Under the pieces are notes generated by a model, which saw only the letters and a program-made list of their open reading frames with translations, searched no databases and was not told where the DNA came from. This document shows, in pieces, positions 23,900 to 42,262 of a stretch of 64,000 nt of DNA. Positions within the stretch are counted from its first letter, which is position 1. Every line of letters begins with the position of its first letter. Origin of the DNA: Squalus acanthias (taxonomy: Eukaryota); contig CM059431.1 of NCBI GenBank assembly GCA_030390025.1, positions 153,824,001-153,888,000 of the forward strand. Direction: 5' to 3'. The position numbers and the translations under genes were made by a program.

Positions 23900-25390
23900 A
23901 TAAGAACATAAGACATAAGAACATAAGAAAATAGAACATAAGACGTAGAAGCAGGAGTAGGTCATTTGGCCCCTCGAGCCTAATCCGCCATTCAATAAGA
24001 TCATGACTGATCTGATCTTGGCCTCAACTCCACTTCCCTGCCTGCTCCCCACAACCCTTCACTCCCTTACCTTTCAAAAATCTGTCTCTCTCCACCTTAA
24101 ATATATTCAATGACTCAGCCTCCACAGCTCTCTGGGGAAGAGAATTCCAAAGATTCACGACCCTCTGAGAGAAGAAATTCCTCCTCATTTCCGATTTAAA
24201 AGGGTGCCCCCTTATTCTGAAATAATGTCCCCTAGTTCTAGATTCCCCCACGAGTGGAAACATCCTCTCTGCCTCTACCCGTTCAATCCCCTTCAGAATC
24301 TAATATGTTTCAATAAGATCCACTCACATTCTTCTCAACTCCAATGAGTATAGGCCCAACCTGCTCAACATTTCTTCATAAGATAATCCCTTCATCTCCG
24401 GAATCAACCTCTTAAACCTTCTCTGAACTGCCTCCAACGCAAGTACATCCTTCCTTAAATAAGGAGACCAAAAATGTACGCAGTACTCCAGGTGTGGTCT
24501 CACCAACGCCCTGTACAGTTGTAACAGGACTTCCCTACAATTGTACTCCATTACCTTTGCAATAAAGGCCAACACTCCATTTGCCTTCCTAATTAATTGC
24601 TGTGCATGCATGCTAACTTTTAATGATTCATGTAGAAGGACCTCTTCTGATCGCTCTGTTCCTCAGCATTTCGTAAACTCTCTCCATTTTAATAATAATG
24701 GGCTTTTTTATTTTTTCCTACCAAAGTGGAAAACCTCGCATTTTCACACATTAATCTCCATCTGCCAAATTTTTGCCCACTTACTTGGCCTATCTATATC
24801 CGTTTGCAGATTATTTTCGTCCTCCACACAATTTGCTCCCACCTATCTTTGTATCATCAGCAAATTTGGCTACATTATACTAGGTACCTTCATCCAACTC
24901 ATTAATATAGATTGTTACTAGTTGAGGCCCCAGCACTGATACCTGAGGCACACCGCTAGCTAAGGTTTGGCAAGCTGAAAATGACCCATTAAACCCGAAT
25001 CTCTATTTTCTGTTAGTTAGCCAATCCATGCTAATATATTACCTCAAGCTCTGATTTTGTGTAGTGGCAACTTTCTGGTAATCCAAATACACGACATCTA
25101 CTGGTTCCCCTTTATCCACCCTGCTCGTTACTTCCTCAAAGAACTCCAGCGAATTTGTCAAACCTGATTTCCCTTTCATAAACCATGCTGACTCTGCTTG
25201 ATTATATTGTCATTTTCTAAATGTCCTGCTATCCCTTCTTTAATGACGGATTCCAACATTTTCCCAATGACAGATATTAGGCTAACTGATCGAAAGTTGC
25301 CTGCTTACTGTCTCCCTCCTTTCTTAAATAGGGGCGTTACATTTGCGGATTTCCAGTCCGCTGGGACCTCTCCAGAACCAGGGCATTTTG
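23900..25390 (-). mobile_element. CR1 LINE 3' portion
   Basis: ORFs KANGVLAFI...LVRPHLEYC and FFSQRVVNLWNSLP; (ttcttatg)n tail. Confidence 0.85.
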
Positions 25391-31159: not shown

Positions 31160-32595
31160 TAAAATCACTAAGGAATTGGTATTCAGTAAAATAATGGGAC
31201 TCAAGGCGGATAAATCCCCTGAACCTGATGGCTTACATCCTAGGGTCTTGATGGAAGTGGCAGTAGGGATTGTGGATGCTTTGGTAATAATTTTACAAAA
31301 TTCCCTGGACTCAGCAAAGGTCCCGGCAGATTGGAAAACTGCTAATGTAACACCCTTATTTAAAAAGGGTAGTAGGCAGAAGGCTGGAAATTACAGGCCA
31401 GTTAGCCTAACATCTGTGGTGGGTAAAATTTTGGAGTCTATTATTAAGGAGACAGTAACGGAACATTTAGATAAACATAATTTAATAGGACAAAGTCAGC
31501 ATGGCTTTATGAAGGGGAAGTCATGCCTGACAAATTTGCTTGAGTGCTTTGAGGACATAAAGGACAGGGTGGATAAAGGGGAACCAGTGGACGTAGTGTA
31601 TTTAGACTTCCAGAAGGCATTCGACAAGGTGCCACATAAAAGATTATTGCTCAAGGTAAAACATCACTGGATTGGGGCTAATATTCTGGCATGGGTGGAG
31701 GATTGATTATCTAACAGGAAGCAGAGAGTTGGGATAAATGGTTCATTCTTGGACTGGGAACCAATAGCCAGTGGTATTCCGCAGGGGTCGGTGCTGGGTC
31801 CCCAACTCTTTACAATCTATATAACGATTTGGAGGAGGGGACCGAGTGTAACATATCAAAGTTTGCAGATGATACAAAGATGGGAGAGAAATTAGAAAGT
31901 GAGAAGGACATAAAAAACCTACAAGGGGATATAGACAGGCTGGGTGAGTGGGCGGGGATTTGGCAGATGCAATACAATATTGGAAAATGTGAGGTTATGC
32001 ACTTTGGCAGGAAAAATCAGAGAGTTATTATCTTAATGGCGAGAAACTGGAAAGTACTGCAGTACAAAGGGATCTGGGGGTCTTGGTGCAAGAAAATCAA
32101 AAAGCTAGTATGCAGGTGCAGCAGGTGATCAAGAAGGCCAACGGAATGTTGGCTTTTATTGCTAGGGGGATAGATTATAAAACCATCGAGGTTTTGCTGC
32201 AGTTATATAAGGTATTGGTGAGACCGCACCTGGAATACTGCGTACAGTTTTGGTGTCCATACTTAAGAAAATAAATACTTGCTCTCGAGGCAGTACAAAG
32301 AAGGTTCACTCGGTTAATCCCGGGGATGAGTGGTGGACAAATGAGGAGAGGTTGAGTAGATTTGAACTCTACTCATTGGAGTTCAGAGGAATGAGAGGCG
32401 ATCATATTGAAACATAAAAGATTGTGAAGGGGCTTGATTGGGTGGATGGGAACAGGATGTTCCCAAGGATGGGTGAAACTAGAACTAGGGGGCATAATCT
32501 TAGAATAAGGGGCGGCTCTTTCAAAACTGAGATGAGGAGAAACTTCTTCCACCAGAAGGTAGTAGGTCTGTGGAATTTGCTGCCCCAGGAAGAAG
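31160..32595 (+). mobile_element. CR1 LINE RT region, upstream part, interrupted by the LTR element
   Basis: NYRPVSLTS, VVYLDFQKAFDKVPH, FADDTK and LVRPHLEYC motifs. Confidence 0.9.
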
Positions 32596-34259
32596 TGTAA
32601 GGGATTCTGACCCTGCGTGTCTCGCAGCCTGTGAGATTCACGCGGCTCTGTGCAGCCTGTATGTCAGTGCGGGTCTAGGCCGTGTTGCCTGTTCTGGTCT
32701 CCAGCCAGTTCTGGGACACTAGACACACCTGTGAGTGGTTCGAATCACTCTCCCTTACGGTTCTAGACACTGGACTTTGATGCGAGAGCAGCAATAGAGA
32801 TGAAACTCATGTAGACTTGGTTTGAATGGTACGAAATGGAAAATCTTTATTGCATGATACTTAAGATTATGAAATACATGTCATAAGCACAGATTAATGA
32901 CAGTACAATCTTACAAACAGTTATATAGTCGATCTTAGGGAAACGAGGAACGAACGGCACAAAGTAAATAGGGGCACACATTACAAATATCCTTAATCCT
33001 TAAACCCTCCCCTATCAATATCTATCCTAAACTAGATTCGTAGGATCTCGAGACTCATGCTCACCACTCGTGATAACTCGGAGAAATTCCGAATAGCTGA
33101 TCGGATGTTTTTCACCGCAGCACCCACGTGTTGGTCAGGAGATCTCCTGGTCCCACTTGTTTCCTTGCTTCTGCTGCTCCGGCTAGCAGGCTGGAACGTC
33201 TGCTGTGATGAAGATCTGTATTGGTGGCTTTCACATTCCAGTTACTTTGGGCACAGTCCAGTTATCATCGATGCAATATGTTTCGTTATAAGTTCGAAGA
33301 AGTCTTCCTGGCGAGGAAAACTTGGCTAATCGACCTACAGGCGCGGTCGGGATTTACTGACCGTGGCGATGGATATGGTCTTCCTCTCTTCTCATCTCAT
33401 CTCATCTCATCTCTTCTCGGGCCTTTTGGTTCCGATACCGGTTACCAATATAGGTCTTCGTTACGCGACACGAGGTTGATCCGAACGGATCAGAAAGTTC
33501 AACAGTCTTTTCAGAAGAGGCAACAGGCAAGCAGAAGCCCAACTACGAGTACACAGGAGCAGCCACGAGGTTACGAATCGACCGGATAAGAGCACAGGAG
33601 CAGCCACGATGATAAGAGCAGCAAGAGAGAGAATGGACGGTTTGGAGCCTGCAATTATAGTGCAAAATCTTCCGTTTCCCGCCCAACTATAATGTCCATT
33701 CTTTTGTTTAAGGTCTGGCGCTCAAATGTCTTGTATGGGTGATCTCCGTTCTTAATGGGTTTCGGGGCTACTCGTAAATGTCTGAGTACCTGTTAATATT
33801 TCTCCCATTGTTAAATCGGTCGGTAATCTCCCTGGAGGGGTTTGGGGCTTCCAAGTGTCCTGTATAACTACCTGCTAACGGCTCTCTCATCGTAGAGTCG
33901 TTGGGATTTTACATATTAATGTCTTTTGGATGGGCCCTTGATTACTCGGTACAATGGCTTTCCTTTGTACCTGGGAGACCGATTTCAGTATCTATGTGTA
34001 TACTGCAAACCCATAATGTCTCGTGTATTATCTTCACTGTGCTGACTCTTAATCGATCTTGCACAAATGTTTATTGGAACGCCATCTTGTCTGCCTGTTG
34101 AAAAGTCCAGAATGTTCTGTCACGAGGTGCGGCGGCCATTTTACAGGCTGCTTGTGTCCACTTTAAACCTGCCAGCATTCTACTGAAATAAAAGCTGTTT
34201 GAACGAAACTCTGTGTTTTCTCCTTATTAATAAAATCGCGATATATTGCGAATTCTACA
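32596..34259 (-). repeat. 3' LTR (1664 bp)
   Basis: Direct repeat of 40299-41963; preceded on the minus strand by the PPT; AATAAA at ~32846-32851. Confidence 0.95.
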
Positions 34260-34260
34260 G

Positions 34261-34271
34261 TCCCTCCTGTT
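34261..34271 (-). promoter_or_regulatory. Polypurine tract
   Basis: aacaggaggga lies 1 nt before the 3' LTR TGTA on the minus strand. Confidence 0.7.
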
Positions 34272-34709: not shown

Positions 34710-37061
34710 TCACACGGTGCTTTCATCGTGCACGCGCACGTAACGTTCTCGCCACTCTCCCGTGTTTTCATGCTTGGTGAGGCGCTTGTCTCTTTTACAA
34801 TGTACGACCAATAGGTACACTACAATAAACACTTGGCATACGACTAAAATGTGGGAGGCTATTCTGATCCATGAAGGTACTTCAATATTAGTGAACAGAT
34901 TCCACCACGGTGGAACTACTATATCCAGAATGTCTGTTCCTATTTCGACAGTTTTCTGCTCTAATGTGTAAAAGTGTTTCTGTGACACCGCGACGGCTTT
35001 TAAAAGCTTGGTGAGGTGTTCAGGGAGAGGGGGAATGAGGTATCCAAAATGCGCGACGAATCGCTGCAAGTCGGTGAAATTCTCTTTTACTGTGAGATGA
35101 ACAGTGGATGGTTCAGGGATTGGGATAATTCGCTGTTGTGCTACTTGAACTTCCGCCCTGGGTTTAAAACAGAAACTGCTGTCACTCACCGGACACCGGC
35201 TACGGTTTCCATGCTGGTAGTGTTGCGCTGCAGTGGTAACACAATATGTTCCACCCCCGATGTATGCTACCTGCGGAGGCACATGATCTTGTGCCATTGC
35301 CTCCATGGTGCAATTCATGGACTTGGCGCCAGTCGTTCTGAACCCACACTGTGGTGTTAAAAAGGCATTCAAGTGCTGGGGGCACAGTATTATGTGTGCT
35401 CCCCTGCCACGACAACCAGAGAGATCTGTACCTGTCATCGTTTGCTCCCAGCGGATGACGTAGGGTGGAACCGCTGCATAGCGAATGTGGGCTACCCCCT
35501 GAATGACACCAATGTTCTCTACCCGATACACCGGGGCGGGCTTTGCTGTGTCGCCCAAAACCGGCATACGTAATACTATTCCCATAATAGTATGGTTTGA
35601 TCGTCCGCAGTCCACGGGGACTGGGTAAGCTTCTGAAGCTAGCCTGAGCTGGCATGGACTTAATGCGTTCTGAAAAGGGTGGAGCGCCCGCAGGTGTTTG
35701 TTACTTATCCAGGACGGAACCAAACCTTGTTTTAAATCCTCCAAATTACTGCGGCCCTCGCCCAGTAACCACGCCCCGTAAAGCACGCACACCTCGTTCT
35801 GCGCAGCTTGATCGGATGCATTCCGATCTTCCCTAATCAGGGCATTTACCGTCTTTGCATGTTTCTCCAACTCTGCTATAATTTCCTTTAAATGGAGGGT
35901 CATGGCTTGGTCCTCGTGTAGACCCGACCCTACCACTTTATTCTCATCTGTTAGAATGTCCTTTAATTGTGTCTTTAAACCATTAATCTGGGTCTGCAGC
36001 TCCACACTGTCTAGAGCGTAGACCACAGATGTACCCGTGTTAAAAGCGGTGAACGCATCGTTCACCAAACCCCTTCTTTGCCTCCCTGCTTGATTCAAAA
36101 CTTCCTGTGGTGCGGTGTACAAACTTGTTTTATCAATTTCCGCGAAATCGAATTCGTAAAATTGTCTGAACATCTTGGTCAACAGGACCTGGTACAACTG
36201 TTCCGTCTTTTTGGGGCACCACTCTGGTAACCGCACCTCAGTGAGATTTAAAATCACCGAGGCCACCGCGTAATGTACCCCCTGAAATAGTATCTGGTCT
36301 GTGGGGACCAGTACCAAACCATTCCCGGGTCCCTTACTAGTTTTAGGGCACCCTTCTTCCTCAGCTAGAACCACCGGAATCGTGGGCGGGGCTTTGCGTG
36401 GGCGCGTAATGAGCTCAGTGGCATTTACTGGGATCGGGGAGAATGGGGCTCCGCACCCCCTGGTGCTCGCATCCCACCTCATCCCCTGTCCGTTATGCTG
36501 CCATTGATTAATAAAAAATATGGAGATGCCTTTGGGGCAAACGTACTTTGACCCCCACATACATACATAAATTCCCTCATCCGGTTCCCACCATTTGTCC
36601 CAACAGACTTTCACTTGTCCGTCTGTCCCCGTAATTGTCCGATGGGTATTATTACCCAGTCGTTCCCACTCGACCGAAGAGTTCCTCATAGTTTTGCTCA
36701 GCTTTCGCAGCCACCACCATCGGCTCAATGGGACCTTCCCACTACAAGTCAAACAAATCCGTTTGCCGACGGTGACGCTGATCCTGGGTGCGATGATCCT
36801 TACTTTGGGGCACAGTAAAGAAGTCTCTTTGTAGGCAAACCCCGATGTGCTGGAATACTCCGTTGAGTTCGTTCCCAGCCATCCTGGCCACCTTCCCTTG
36901 TGGAAATAGGTGCTGGTCTCCTCTGCCTCCCGTCTTCCGGTCCCATCCACCGCGATGGGGGCCGTGTCCCCGGAACATCCAAACACCACGACATCCTTGG
37001 TGCGGCCTCGATAGGCCAATCCACATCCGATTGCCGCGAGCAATACTAGAATTCGTTCCAT
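34710..37061 (-). CDS. env: Envelope / class I fusion glycoprotein, ~783 aa from the signal-peptide ATG (ORF open from 37244)
   Basis: Strong-context aggATGG with signal peptide MERILVLLAAIGCGLA; Ig-like segment; furin site RQRR (36072-36083); fusion peptide and heptad repeat; Cys-rich region; TM helix IASHILVVCQVFIVVYLLVV; about ten N-glycosylation sequons. Confidence 0.9.
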   Translation of the reverse strand: MERILVLLAAIGCGLAYRGRTKDVVVFGCSGDTAPIAVDGTGRREAEETSTYFHKGRWPGWLGTNSTEYSSTSGFAYKETSLLCPKVRIIAPRISVTVGKRICLTCSGKVPLSRWWWLRKLSKTMRNSSVEWERLGNNTHRTITGTDGQVKVCWDKWWEPDEGIYVCMWGSKYVCPKGISIFFINQWQHNGQGMRWDASTRGCGAPFSPIPVNATELITRPRKAPPTIPVVLAEEEGCPKTSKGPGNGLVLVPTDQILFQGVHYAVASVILNLTEVRLPEWCPKKTEQLYQVLLTKMFRQFYEFDFAEIDKTSLYTAPQEVLNQAGRQRRGLVNDAFTAFNTGTSVVYALDSVELQTQINGLKTQLKDILTDENKVVGSGLHEDQAMTLHLKEIIAELEKHAKTVNALIREDRNASDQAAQNEVCVLYGAWLLGEGRSNLEDLKQGLVPSWISNKHLRALHPFQNALSPCQLRLASEAYPVPVDCGRSNHTIMGIVLRMPVLGDTAKPAPVYRVENIGVIQGVAHIRYAAVPPYVIRWEQTMTGTDLSGCRGRGAHIILCPQHLNAFLTPQCGFRTTGAKSMNCTMEAMAQDHVPPQVAYIGGGTYCVTTAAQHYQHGNRSRCPVSDSSFCFKPRAEVQVAQQRIIPIPEPSTVHLTVKENFTDLQRFVAHFGYLIPPLPEHLTKLLKAVAVSQKHFYTLEQKTVEIGTDILDIVVPPWWNLFTNIEVPSWIRIASHILVVCQVFIVVYLLVVHCKRDKRLTKHENTGEWRERYVRVHDESTV

Positions 37062-37244
37062 CCTTCCTTGGTTCCTGTGATCAGATAGAATGAGGTAGCC
37101 AGCCTCGCAAGAGTCTCTGGCTTTTGTGAAGGGTGAGCGGGTCCCCTGACCTCGCCTCACGTAAACTTCAACGTTCGCTGAATAAACTTCAACTAAACCT
37201 ATCTTTAAAGCTCCCATCATTTTATCGTTTTCTGTTAAAAACAC

Positions 37245-37345
37245 TACAATCTTAACCTTATTAAAACTATAAACTTAACCTTGAACTATTAACTTAAAAC
37301 TTAACCTTGAACTATAAACTTAAAACTTAGAACTATAACTTTACA
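37245..37345 (-). promoter_or_regulatory. T-rich short-repeat tract upstream of env (candidate splice-acceptor region)
   Basis: Repeated aacttaaccttgaactat units; minus-strand tttttaacag just downstream (~37232). Confidence 0.35.
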
Positions 37346-37372: not shown

Positions 37373-38482
37373 TTAAATTCTGAGAAGGCTGCTGCGAGCT
37401 CTTCCCGACGGTGGGAGGGTACTGACCCTTCCCTCTGATCTGCCGCAGCCTGTTACTGCTGCGATGTGGCCGGTCTGTATCTGGGTTATCTTAACCTTAA
37501 ACTTACGCCTTGGGGCAGTCTGGGGACATGACCACATCCTCCTGGGCTGGGGTTCTCTCCTTGACCTATGGGGAGTTGCTATGGGCGGGGTTTCCGTGAC
37601 GGACGGACCGGGTTCCGAGACTTCCATCGGGATGACCTGGGGTTCCATCACAGTCGCTGGCTCCGCCTCCGCTGACTCCGCCTCCCTAACCTCGGGGCTG
37701 GCAGTTCGTGGCTCCGCCCTGCTCGGCCCAGCAGGCAGCCCTTCACTCGTGATCTCTGCCTCCCCCGAGGACGGGACGTTCAAAGCGGGCGGCCACATCT
37801 CTGGGAGCCACACCGGTACTCTCTGTGCTCCCATAGCGGCTGGCCCTGCCTCCCCTAGCTCCTCCCTCCTGTCTTCGGGACCTGCAGCTTGTGTGTCCAC
37901 CCTGTGTGGATCTCTACCTACAGCCCCCATTCCCTCCAGACCGTTCCTCAGGAACCACCCGTCGTCATCACTATTCCCATCTGCACTATCCTCATCTGAC
38001 CCGGGTACCCTGAATTCTTCCTCATCTAACCCCCAATTCCAGAAAAACGCTGCATGATCGTCCGGGATGTCCCTTCCCCTGATGCAAGCTGCTATGCCTG
38101 CCTGTGTGCCTTGTGGTCCTACCTGGGGCTGTGCTTCCCCACTGGCGGGGTTTACCCCTGTGGTTTTCCCTTGCGCACCTGGCTGGTACAGTTTGCACTG
38201 GTTTGCATCCTCATACTCCCGGCTTTTGGCTACCCTGTAGGCTGCTTTTATCTCACTAAGCTGCGCTTCTAGCCTGAGCACGTCTAACTTTCCCATTGAT
38301 CGGGCGTTCTCCTCCCGCAGGGCCTGCTCTCTAAGCTGCCCTTCCAGCCCATCTATTTTCCCTATTAAGCGGGCGTTCTCCTCCCGCAAGGCCTGCTCTT
38401 TTAACCTGGCCTCCTCACCGCAGACCCCCTCCTGTGCGTGTCTTTTAAAAGGACACAGGTAGGCAGGCTGCGTGGGCTCTAG
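37373..38482 (-). CDS. ORF2 of unknown function in the pol position; in frame with gag after TGA-CTAG
   Basis: Open from the codon after the gag stop (LEPTQPAYLCPF...) to 37373; coiled coil followed by acidic/Pro-rich sequence; no PR, RT, RH or IN motifs. Confidence 0.7.
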   Translation of the reverse strand, partial: LEPTQPAYLCPFKRHAQEGVCGEEARLKEQALREENARLIGKIDGLEGQLREQALREENARSMGKLDVLRLEAQLSEIKAAYRVAKSREYEDANQCKLYQPGAQGKTTGVNPASGEAQPQVGPQGTQAGIAACIRGRDIPDDHAAFFWNWGLDEEEFRVPGSDEDSADGNSDDDGWFLRNGLEGMGAVGRDPHRVDTQAAGPEDRREELGEAGPAAMGAQRVPVWLPEMWPPALNVPSSGEAEITSEGLPAGPSRAEPRTASPEVREAESAEAEPATVMEPQVIPMEVSEPGPSVTETPPIATPHRSRREPQPRRMWSCPQTAPRRKFKVKITQIQTGHIAAVTGCGRSEGRVSTLPPSGRARSSLLRI

Positions 38483-40294
38483 TCATTGGGTACTATTAGA
38501 CGGTCCTGCGGCACCTACGGGGCCGGTTGCGACCGCCACCTGTCCACGTGCATTCAAGACCAGCTTGCGCATGGCTCCTAACACCACTTCGAGTTCGTCA
38601 GGAGGGGTGGGTGCCTTAGCTTCCTTAGCCGGGACAGGCGCCTGGGCTCGGACCGCGGGATTTTTATCCTTGGAATCCTTCCAAGGGTTCCTGCAATGCT
38701 TGCGCCAGTGCCCTGTCTTCCCACACCCGTAACAAGCATTACCTGCCTGTGGGGCGCGATTACCCTCCTGATGCCACTCTCTTTGATACGGGGCTGCGGG
38801 TCGTACCTCATGTACTCTTCCCTTAAGGGGACGTGTTGCCATACCCCTTATATTGCGATAACCTAACGTGAGTCGATTCAAGACCGACTCTTCCGTAATG
38901 TTGGGGTCATTGGGATCAAACCATGCTTTTGCCTGCTCTCTGACGGCTGGTAAACTGTTGGCTATTATGCACCTAAGCCAATGAGTTAAAGCGGTGCCTT
39001 CCACATCTTCGCTCTCGGGCGCACCTAGGCAGCTGCGCTCATATACTGGCCACAGCCTTTCGGCAAAAACCTTCGGGGGTTCTCCCTCCATCTGCACTGT
39101 CTGTCCCACTCTAGCAAACGGACCTTCGTCGTTCGCCCCCAACACTTCCAGGACCTCATTCTTTAATTCCTCATAACTCTTGGTTCCCCTCTTGCTCTCG
39201 CCTTAGAGACACTGAAGGACCGAGCTGTCTAATGAGAACAGCAGCATTTTTGCTGTCTCCCCATCATCGCAGCCGTTAATGGCTGCGTCTTGCTCAACTT
39301 CTCTGAAATGTACGGAAGGGTCGTCTGCCTCGGTCAGCTTCCGTACGTGATTTATCATAGCTCTCAGCTGATGTGAACTGTGAGGCAACACCAGCTGTCC
39401 GAGGAGATCCCCCGGTTCTTCCCCACCGTTTCTGCTTGGGCCCCTTTTAATACCCGTTACTGGATATTACGATCCCTTTCCTACTTCTTTTTCAATGGGC
39501 TCTTTTGTTTCTTCCATTGCTTCCTCCCTAACCCAGGTTTCTGAATAGCTGGGTGGCGCGGAGGGCGCAGTGGCTACTACTTCTTCTGCTTTACTTGGTG
39601 GGGATTTTCTAAATCTCTCATTTACTAGCGGCTGGTGCGCCGACGGATTGATAAGGCACACCATGCCGTTCGCATTGTTCACGGCCTTTTTGAGGTGCTC
39701 TATCTCCCTTTGGCAGGCGCTATGATCGGCTCCCTGAAACTTATCCTCAAGGGCCAACTTATATGCCGCCCTAACCCCCGTCAAGCTCTCTTCTTGAGTT
39801 CTTATCTGGGCAGCTTGGCGGTTACATCTTTCCTTTAACCTGCTCTCATTCAATTTTGCCTCAGTGACCTGGCACTCGAGATAATCTATCCTTGTTTTAA
39901 GGTGACTGGAGACTTCCTGGCTTTCTTGGTGTAACTCATTTAAATTCTTAATGAGCACCTCCCCTCCAGAAACCTTCTCATCCATTTCTCCCTCTAAATG
40001 ACTGATTCGAGCTACTAGCGCTGTAATGGTCTGGTTTGAAATCTGAACCTGCCTTTTGTAACACATAAGCCAGACTGCTTTCTCAAGTGTCTTTCTATGT
40101 TCTTTACTATCTGTCCACCTTTCAGCTGCCTCTAGTGGGCTTTTATCCGCTAACAATTCACTTATCCATTTCTTAGTTAGATTAACCTTTCCAAACACAT
40201 AATCCGCTATCTTTTCCTGCATAACATTTCGTACAGTCATTCCAAAATCTAACACACTACCCTCTCGCTGCCAGTGTCCTGCCGCGGTCGCCAT
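38483..40294 (-). pseudogene. gag: gag (~603 codons) with two in-frame TAA stops (39467-39469, 39203-39205)
   Basis: Three listed ORFs share one frame; coiled coil, PSAPPSY, MHR-like QMEGEPPKVFAERL, CCHC knuckle CYGCGKTGHWRKHC (38693-38734). Confidence 0.9.
40276..40293 (-). promoter_or_regulatory. Primer-binding site (tRNA-Ser-like, tentative)
   Basis: TGGCGACCGCGGCAGGAC begins 5 nt after the 5' LTR; resembles TGGCGTAGTCGGCAGGAT (recalled vertebrate tRNA-Ser complement). Confidence 0.65.
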
Positions 40295-40298
40295 TTTC

Positions 40299-41963
40299 TG
40301 TAAGGGATTCTGACCCTGCGTGTCTCGCAGCCTGTGAGATTCACGCGGCTCTGTGCAGCCTGTATGTCAGTGCGGGTCTAGGCCTTGTTGCCTGTTCTGG
40401 TCTCCAGCCAGTTCTGGGAACACTAGACACACCTGTGAGTGGTTCGAATCACTCTCCCTTACGGTTCTAGACACTGGACTTAGATGCGAGAGCAGCAATA
40501 GAGATGAAACTCATGTAGACTTGGTTTGAATGGTACGAAATGGAAAATCTTTATTGCATGATACTTACCATTATGAAATACATGTCATAAGCACAGATTA
40601 ATGACAGTACAATCTTACAAACAGTTATATAGTCGATCTTAGGGAAACGAGGAACGAACGGCACAAAGTAAATAGGGGCACACATTACAAATATCCTTAA
40701 TCCTTAAACCCTCCCCTATCAATATCTATCCTAAACTAGATTCGTAGGATCTCGAGACTCATGCTCACCACTCGTGATAACTCGGAGAAATTCCGAATAG
40801 CTGATCGGATGTTTTTCACCGCAGCACCCACGTGTTGGTCAGGAGATCTCCTGGTCCCACTTGTTTACTTGCTTCTGCTGCTCCGGCTAGCAGGCTGGAA
40901 CGTCTGCTGTGATGAAGATCTGTATTGGTGGCTTTCACATTCCAGTTACTTTGGGCACAGTCCAGTTATCATCGATGCAATATGTTTCGTTATAAGTTCG
41001 AAGAAGTCTTCCTGGCGAGGAAAACTTGGCTAATCGACCTACAGGCGCGGTCGGGATTTACTGACCGTGGCGATGGATATGGTCTTCCTCTCTTCTCATC
41101 TCATCTCATCTCATCTCTTCTCGGGCCTTTTGGTTCCGATACCGGTTACCAATATAGGTCTTCGTTACGCGACACGAGGTAGATCCGAACGGATCAGAAA
41201 GTTCAACAGTCTTTTCAGAAGAGGCAACAGGCAAGCAGAAGCCCAACTACGAGTACACAGGAGCAGCCACGAGGTTACGAATCGACCGGATAAGAGCACA
41301 GGAGCAGCCACGATGATAAGAGCAGCAAGAGAGAGAATGGACGGTTTGGAGCCTGCAATTATAGTGCAAAATCTTCCGTTTCCCGCCCAACTATAATGTC
41401 CATTCTTTTGTTTAAGGTCTGGCGCTCAAATGTCTTGTATGGGTGATCTCCGTTCTTAATGGGTTTCGGGGCTACTCGTAAATGTCTGAGTACCTTTTAA
41501 TATTTCTCCCATTGTTAAATCGGTCGGTAATCTCCCTGGAGGGGTTTGGGGCTTCCAAGTGTCCTGTATAACTACCTGCTAACGGCTCTCTCATCGTAGA
41601 GTCGTTGGGATTTTACATATTAATGTCTTTTGGATGGGCCCTTGATTACTCGGTACAATGGCTTTCCTTTGTACCTGGGAGACCGATTTCAGTATCTATG
41701 TGTATACTGCAAACCCATAATGTCTCGTGTATTATCTTCACTGTGCTGACTCTTAATCGATCTTGCACAAATGTTTATTGGAACGCCATCTTGTCTGCCT
41801 GTTGAAAAGTCTAGAATGTTCTGTCACGAGGTGCGGCGGCCATTTTACAGGCTGCTTGTGTCCACTTTAAACCTGCCAGCATTCTACTGAAATAAAAGCT
41901 GTTTGAACGAAACTCTGTGTTTTCTCCTTCTTAATAAAATCGCGATATATTGCGAATTCTACA
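40299..41963 (-). repeat. 5' LTR (1665 bp)
   Basis: Direct repeat of 32596-34259 with about ten differences by eye; followed on the minus strand by PBS and gag. Confidence 0.95.
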
Positions 41964-42262
41964 GAAGCTACATCATTAATTAATTTAAAACAGAAATAGA
42001 TAGTTTCCTAGAGGTAAAGGGAATTAGGGCTTACGGTGAGCGGGCAGGAAATTGCACATGAGGCTGAGTTCGGATCGGTCAGGGCCCTGTGGGTGGCGGA
42101 GCGGGCCCAGGGGCTGAGTGGCCGGGTCCTGCACCTACTTCTTGTGTTCTTTAGATTTCAGGTTAGGATCAGATCAGCCATGATCTTATTGAATTGCGGA
42201 GCAGGCTCGAGGGGCCGATTGGCCTACTCCTGCTCCTATTTCTTATGTTCTTATGTTCTTAT
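41964..42262 (+). mobile_element. CR1 LINE 3' end, continuing 31160-32595
   Basis: Resumes gaagctacatcattaat...; ends in the gcaggctcgaggggccg stem-loop and (ttcttatg)n tail. Confidence 0.85.

Follow-up and report, generated by a model that had tools for sequence, protein, structure and literature searches.

What does a stop codon at the end of gag do in an element that has lost the enzymes usually encoded behind it? The question is raised by a 64,000-nucleotide stretch of Squalus acanthias DNA (the window; GenBank assembly GCA_030390025.1, contig CM059431.1, positions 153,824,001 to 153,888,000), which carries on its minus strand a young 9.4-kb long terminal repeat (LTR) element with gag, a second open reading frame (ORF2) and an env-like gene. 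ORF2 continues the gag frame directly behind a TGA. This TGA is the native gag end. We consider it probable that it bears an inherited readthrough signal and that readthrough would now lead into an in-frame pol remnant, a relic and not a captured gene.

The minus strand reads CAA TGA CTA GAG C from 38488 to 38476, with the TGA at 38485-38483. An earlier interpretation from the letters alone (the sequence-only reading) had described CAA-TGA-CTAG at the end of gag with the same frame open for about 369 codons, and this was confirmed on the minus strand. Behind the TGA the gag frame runs through 369 open codons until a TAA at 37375-37373 (minus strand); the other two minus-strand frames across ORF2 hold 21 and 19 stops. 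A run of 369 open codons is expected by chance with P about 1e-6 at the local base composition. The heptamer TGACTAG occurs three times in the window versus 7.2 matches expected from shuffles, so the 7-mer by itself is not rare. CTAG directly follows only 3 of the 2357 TGA triplets of the window, and its position exactly at the gag end is therefore unlikely to be due to chance.

The gag gene (38486..40294, minus strand) spans 603 codons and is broken by two premature stops. Its product has an N-terminal coiled coil, a capsid-like helical region and one CCHC zinc knuckle, and the terminal TGA lies downstream of this knuckle (zf-CCHC in the last gag segment). For alignment to relatives, gag was translated with X at both premature TAA codons. 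Two relatives, P0002 and P0003, are 45-52% identical to this product. Neither has a stop at the TAA sites, and both have as last residue the Gln found in the window. Thirty-two proteins were compared for the position of the gag end. Seven close relatives, falling into three 90% identity clusters, reach the C-terminus (P0002, P0003, P0005, P0006, P0007, P0033 and P0034); the remainder are fragments or too distant to align there. All seven end within one residue of the stop in the window, with Q as last residue in four, as here, and L in three. The named close relatives come from skate, catshark and whale shark, weaker ones from horn shark and Xenopus, which points to a cartilaginous fish as the likely host.

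The two premature TAA codons have a different history. One lies at gag codon 276 (39467..39469, minus strand) and the other at codon 364 (39203..39205, minus strand); relatives are open across both. At position 39204 all of the covering contig depth in four of four sequencing runs differs from the window, so the codon-364 TAA is a private change of this copy. The listing of variant places covers 40 of 558 and does not include the codon-276 TAA. Because the relatives share the end at the TGA yet are open at both TAA sites, the TGA is on these comparisons the native gag terminator, as had been proposed, and the two TAA codons are decay.

Some further observations concern gag itself. The first ATG of the frame overlaps the primer-binding-site-like sequence (40294-40276, minus strand), five nucleotides inside the LTR, and relatives share the first residues. 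In a five-sequence alignment, no column before the Met at codon 25 is invariant, and this Met may be the real start. Two whale-shark gene models, P0031 and P0020, join a Gag piece to the N-terminus of the Env found here; these joins either stem from faulty gene models across related elements or reflect additional in-frame rearrangements of Gag in the family. The predicted Gag structure had a mean predicted local distance difference test score (pLDDT) of 44, below 50 over the capsid region, and was too poor for fold comparison. In the Gag profile search, zinc knuckles were found, and a capsid chain appeared only at E 1.6.

The sequence-only reading had called UGA-CUAG a known readthrough context, and this agrees with human genes and with the alphavirus type II class (PMC4132726, PMC13517186). 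Two type II features are present at positions 38479..38488 (minus strand), namely UGA followed by CUAG and a long open frame downstream. An open upstream frame, found in the relatives, is lacking in the window copy, where gag is closed by the two TAA codons. A possible 3' stem from about +8 to +70, a feature that is conditional for UGACUA, is not clearly above background, with a folding z of -2.26 over 161 nucleotides and -1.42 over 75. Four 75-nucleotide windows inside the gag frame, starting at 38744, 38894, 39294 and 39669 (minus strand), gave z between -3.7 and -4.5 with 40 shuffles each; their folds are stronger than that of the 75-nucleotide piece after the stop. From the context and the position at the gag end, UGA-CUAG at 38485-38479 is likely an inherited gag-pol readthrough signal. 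The sequence-only reading had likewise taken it for a gag-pol recoding signal, and inheritance is the simplest explanation in view of lokiretrovirus gag ends and fission-yeast elements (see below).

ORF2 falls into three parts. The first 32 nucleotides after the stop (38451..38482, minus strand; codons 1-11) are delimited by contig loose ends at 38451 and are likely the retained start of an ancestral pol frame. They are followed by a 246-nucleotide in-frame insert of 82 codons (38205..38450, minus strand) that mostly encodes a Gag-like coiled coil, as judged from a Gag profile, with loose ends at both edges. The rest, codons 94-369 and the stop (37373..38204, minus strand), is of low complexity, rich in P, A, G and E, and homologous to P0022.

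This last homology was found in a full HMMER scan, where P0022 was the only one of 27 hits to fall in ORF2 (codons 93-369, E 1e-10). Pairwise comparison gave 4e-18, and the alignment reaches the last residues of both proteins. Residues 93-150 and 295-369 of ORF2 each scored better against P0022 than 500 of 500 shuffles. P0022 has 266 amino acids and comes from a 5-kb Logan contig. Its residues 12-49 have sub-cutoff Pfam matches to SH3_Tf2-1 (E 0.0022) and Integrase_p58_C (E 0.1). The first 50 residues are absent from ORF2; by eye, they look like the ends of published lokiretrovirus pol genes. On these matches, P0022 is probably an integrase end joined to a long Pol tail.

The Gag-like part was evaluated with a coiled-coil profile built from 11 Gag relatives without the window sequence. 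ORF2 residues of about 24-94 scored 25.9 bits, a value reached by none of 1000 plain and none of 1000 heptad-preserving shuffles; residues 12-23 lie outside this match. As controls, the reversed sequence gave 4.3 bits and the Env coiled coil 1.5 bits. A comparison of the insert with the Gag coiled coil by hhalign gave E 5e-4 at a probability of 30%. The insert carries an internal duplication with 69-nucleotide spacing. It has no DNA-level match to the gag of this copy, so the donor was another or an older gag.

The claim that ORF2 is an unknown cargo protein is not supported, because most of ORF2 maps to the probable Pol C-terminal tail and to the Gag coiled coil of the relatives; a foreign gene was rejected on the same ground. 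Near-length homologues of ORF2 were absent among 8000 candidates, and the best ESM Atlas match to ORF2 (0.82) was uninformative. An antisense open frame of 226 codons (37377-38057, plus strand) overlaps the Pol-tail part; it has no Pfam match and is probably a shadow of the GC-rich sense frame.

We compared the window with contigs from four runs (X3, X9, X15 and X20) out of 24 runs listed, none of which is recorded as RNA. Matching contigs break off at the two edges of the insert. Loose ends at 38451 were found in at least two contigs each in X15 and X20, and at 38204 at least three contigs of X3 and three of X20 have such ends, with an X9 match ending there as well. These counts are lower bounds, with 237 further entries beyond those listed. 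Position 38204 is the same joint between the Gag-like part and the tail that was found independently by protein homology. Because contigs depart at both joints, other copies carry different sequence between 38451 and 38204. Such loose ends are as expected if the 246-nucleotide in-frame piece replaced pol, which is the likely event, pol being the probable identity of the lost part.

Other contigs run through. An 843-nucleotide X9 contig bridges the stop and 38451 without a gap, with 18 differences, 16 of which are listed and lie outside 38476-38488. A 211-nucleotide X15 contig bridges the same region with 0 differences, so the chimeric form is seen more than once. In X20, a contig that spans the insert shows 2 differences. 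One contig of X9 follows the window from the ORF2 side as far as 38486 but leaves it on the gag side. The expectation that other copies keep the motif thus held in part: it is identical in X15 and untouched by the 16 listed X9 differences, but no bridging piece is listed for X3 or X20, and the bridging relatives (X9, X15) are close ones.

Based on these observations, the following course of events is proposed. Gag-Pol of the ancestor would have been made by the few percent of ribosomes that passed UGA-CUAG. In the subfamily to which the window copy belongs, the protease-reverse transcriptase-integrase core was likely replaced by the 246-nucleotide piece, mostly Gag coiled coil. What now follows the gag stop would then be the first 11 codons of the former pol frame, the insert, and a Pol tail of about 276 codons that ends at a stop of its own. 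Where a sister copy has an open gag, a fusion of Gag, coiled coil and Pol tail without enzymes would arise by readthrough in minor amounts, most likely a tolerated relic. The element itself may have been copied in trans by a pol-containing relative. In the window copy, translation from the gag start would hit the TAA codons at 276 and 364, and the signal is most likely silent. The sequence-only reading had missed these two stops; because they lie upstream in gag, this copy should not make the Gag-ORF2 fusion it had proposed.

Several results weigh against this proposal. The post-stop hairpin had a z of -1.42 over 75 nucleotides, a value as low being reached in 22 of 114 windows, and is not clearly above background. 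The Pol-tail label depends on one Logan protein with sub-cutoff Pfam matches, for which no meaningful PDB match was found and the structure model was too poor to use (pLDDT 39). A full pol of this family behind the stop was not found. Longer Gag fusions were absent among 7848 sequences searched with the Gag profile at longer lengths, which is weak evidence. The Gag profile gave 140 pattern matches in metagenome contigs and 42 in viral contigs, none confirmed, and a degenerate junction pattern gave 0 matches in metagenome contigs. Finally, the reading frame is kept across both joints of the insert and through its duplication, whose spacing is divisible by three; this would happen in about 1 in 27 cases if neutral and suits selection better than a relic.

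This last point leads to the alternative that fares best, the same origin with the fusion under selection. Here the Gag-coiled coil-Pol-tail protein would work in particles, as the cargo proposed in the sequence-only reading would, but home-made and not foreign. We regard this as less likely than a relic. In addition to the frame kept at both joints and in the 69-nucleotide-spaced duplication, runs carrying the labels of organisms B and C contain the chimera, and D contains the insert. Length changes listed for ORF2 are for the most part divisible by three (39, 21, 6 and 63 nucleotides), versus mixed values in or next to the ORF2-env spacer (1, 26, 6, 1 and 1 nucleotides), with 10 further entries beyond those listed. 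X3 also has contigs over the insert region whose identity is only about 85-91% and which contain 0 or 6 gap letters. However, substitutions do not point the same way. Among the 40 of 558 places listed, and with the broken codon omitted, the 10 ORF2 substitutions are distributed 4/3/3 over codon positions 1/2/3 versus 5/3/9 for the 17 in gag. The indels also include a 2-nucleotide insertion at 37669 in one X20 contig, which may be a short match of no relation, and a skip of 614 nucleotides across the stop in one contig of X3. Moreover, tail contigs may derive from copies that contain pol, and diverged insert contigs may derive from the gag that donated the insert, so neither is proof of selection on ORF2. 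The searches described above found no near-length ORF2-like protein.

The selected form would have consequences of its own. The pol-less subfamily is a natural deletion experiment, and a chimera under selection would point to a function for the long Pol tail. The tail of about 275 residues would then serve a purpose independent of the enzymes and, linked to a second Gag coiled coil, would form a minor particle protein. Stated in full, this would be a pol-less, env-bearing subfamily in several cartilaginous-fish genomes whose readthrough product was rebuilt under selection, with the UGA-CUAG switch retained and the enzymes swapped for a second Gag coiled coil and the Pol tail; at present we would rather doubt than accept it.

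A further alternative concerns expression. The stop would not be usefully read through, and the downstream frame would be reached by a spliced RNA, an internal promoter or reinitiation, or not be expressed at all. The post-stop hairpin, not clearly above background, agrees with this, as do seven in-frame ATGs in ORF2, the first at codon 63. Published cases point the same way: the Candida Tca2 gag-UGA-pol junction alone gave no readthrough in a yeast reporter (PMC2194720), and among 23 human UGA-CUAG genes only four have conserved extensions (Loughran et al., PMC4132726). Nevertheless, the context matches the UGA readthrough motif that has been studied best, ORF2 is open immediately behind the stop, and other LTR elements likewise have a stop followed by CT at their gag-pol junctions. 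Furthermore, no joint at the ORF2 start is listed in X9, a possible RNA run, a weak point that comes from contigs only. We judge this explanation to be unlikely.

Last, the TGA could be a third decay mutation in a continuous gag-ORF2 frame followed by CTAG by chance, as two other stops in the frame and a TGACTAG count no higher than in shuffles would allow, but this is very improbable and largely refuted by the seven of seven shared ends, by relatives that are open at both TAA sites and end at the TGA, and by the contrast between position 39204, which differs in each of the four runs, and the TGA region, which X15 shares without change.

The element that carries this junction is bounded by two LTRs. 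The 5' LTR (40299..41963, minus strand) has 1665 bp and ends in TGTA...TACA, and the 3' LTR (32596..34259, minus strand) has 1664 bp. LTR-LTR comparison gave 99.4% identity with 9 mismatches and 1 gap column. The target-site duplication GAAG lies at 41964..41967 on the right and at 32592..32595 on the left. A primer-binding-site-like 18-mer that starts with TGG (40276..40293, minus strand) is found five nucleotides inside the LTR and is putatively tRNA-Arg-like. A short purine-rich, polypurine-tract-like sequence adjoins the 3' LTR (34260..34268, minus strand). The element thus has the marks of a non-autonomous LTR element: direct LTRs with TG...CA ends, a target duplication, primer-binding-site-like and polypurine-tract-like sites, and no reverse transcriptase or integrase core, yet multiple copies, seen in the pol-less junction bridged in two other runs and in many variant contigs. 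For protease, reverse transcriptase and integrase behind the stop, Pfam gave no match, and D[ST]G[AS], YxDD and GPY motifs were absent from the gag/ORF2 frame. With none of these enzymes in frame behind the stop, it differs from an autonomous gag-stop-pol element of the Tj1/Tosmo or MLV type and would work like one whose enzymes were lost.

The env-like frame (34710..37274, minus strand) has 854 open codons and encodes 783 amino acids from the Met at 37061. It shows a signal-peptide-like start, an RQRR site followed by a hydrophobic stretch, and a C-terminal transmembrane-like segment. Pfam and PDB gave no family match, and the ESM Atlas no named one (best 0.84, to an unnamed chordate cluster). 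About 320 residues precede the RQRR site, with a weak immunoglobulin-like match (E 0.47). The env-like frame is fully open, while gag of the same copy has two stops. The LTRs are long (1.66 kb), and both copies hold open frames of 70-125 codons. The insertion site at 32000-32595 is an older repeat with a 76%-identical copy at 24132-24320; it has no Pfam match and presumably resembles the 3' end of a CR1-type long interspersed nuclear element.

The mechanism, gag-UGA-CU-pol readthrough, is already known, and what is found here is an unusual pol-deleted subfamily that carries it. A literature search found no description of this element, although the family may be catalogued in repeat databases, and no paper with both 'lokiretrovirus' and 'readthrough'. 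The main text of the lokiretrovirus paper (PMC7947760) and the Odin paper (PMC9040795) contain neither 'readthrough' nor 'stop codon', and a 2026 review of viral readthrough (PMC13517186) contains neither 'lokiretrovirus' nor 'retrotransposon'.

Among known systems, alphaviruses and the human genes OPRL1, OPRK1, AQP4 and MAPK10 share the same stop and 3' tetranucleotide with an open frame behind. UGACUA is the alphavirus type II context (PMC13517186), and human UGA-CUAG genes gave measured readthrough of about 3.5-31% (PMC4132726). There readthrough was measured, whereas here it is predicted, and the extended stem-loop of alphaviruses is not clearly matched. The gag-pro junction of gamma- and epsilonretroviruses also has an in-frame stop after the zinc knuckle, a UGA in SSSV and in two fish and frog endogenous retroviruses (PMC13517186). 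In contrast to the present element, the contexts listed are UAG-G, UGAAGA, UGACGA and UGAAGU, not UGACUA (PMC13517186), and a protease DTG motif that is absent here follows the stop. Zebrafish BHIKHARI (Bik-1), a gag-only endogenous lokiretrovirus relative, is likewise a young fish LTR element without pol that has kept gag (10.1101/2024.03.25.586437). It has a single frame with a glycine-rich tail, while the element described here has, besides a CCHC knuckle and an env-like gene, a pol remnant linked to gag by the putative readthrough stop.

A closer layout is known from the fission-yeast Ty3/gypsy elements Tj1, Tcry1 and Tosmo1-3. In these, GAA-TGA-CT(A/G) separates gag and pol and is read by the authors as programmed readthrough (10.1101/2022.12.06.519325). 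As here, an in-frame TGA ends gag, with AA before and CT(A/G) after it. Unlike here, a full pol stands behind the stop and no env is named in the accessible text; here pol remnants follow, and then an env-like gene. The likeness described here is one of layout. A filing as gypsy element is not possible without a reverse transcriptase.

Lokiretroviruses are, like the present element, LTR elements of vertebrates with gag and env, although with pol between them, and have a basic cleavage site in Env. Their listed host classes exclude cartilaginous fish, and by eye the residues after the stop are dissimilar. They are defined by reverse transcriptase phylogeny (sister to Retroviridae, dual RNase H), and the element here has no reverse transcriptase. 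Their Env criterion, PF00523 (paramyxo/pneumovirus F), gave no match to the env-like frame at E up to 10 and none in PDB. A filing as lokiretrovirus was therefore rejected. The gag ends can nevertheless be compared. In the accessible part of the lokiretrovirus supplement (Wang and Han 2021, PMC7947760), all four separately headed gag genes listed end in TGA. CTAG follows in three of the four, and one reads CAA-TGA-CTAG. The supplement holds at least 17 TGACTAG matches, these three among them, as line breaks can hide others. At two junctions counted by eye, the gag frame stays open for about 40 codons of the annotated pol, and in 10 of 24 entries gag and pol are annotated together as a single fused gene. 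Two of the three gag ends show by eye an apparent stem-loop that starts about 10 nucleotides after the stop and that the main text of the paper does not mention. Taken with the element described here, the three lokiretrovirus gag genes suggest that UGA-CUAG is the gag-pol switch of vertebrate env-bearing LTR elements; under the reading with a selected fusion, alphavirus-type readthrough at UGA-CUAG would be a gag-pol switch so far overlooked in this family and in some of the lokiretroviruses.

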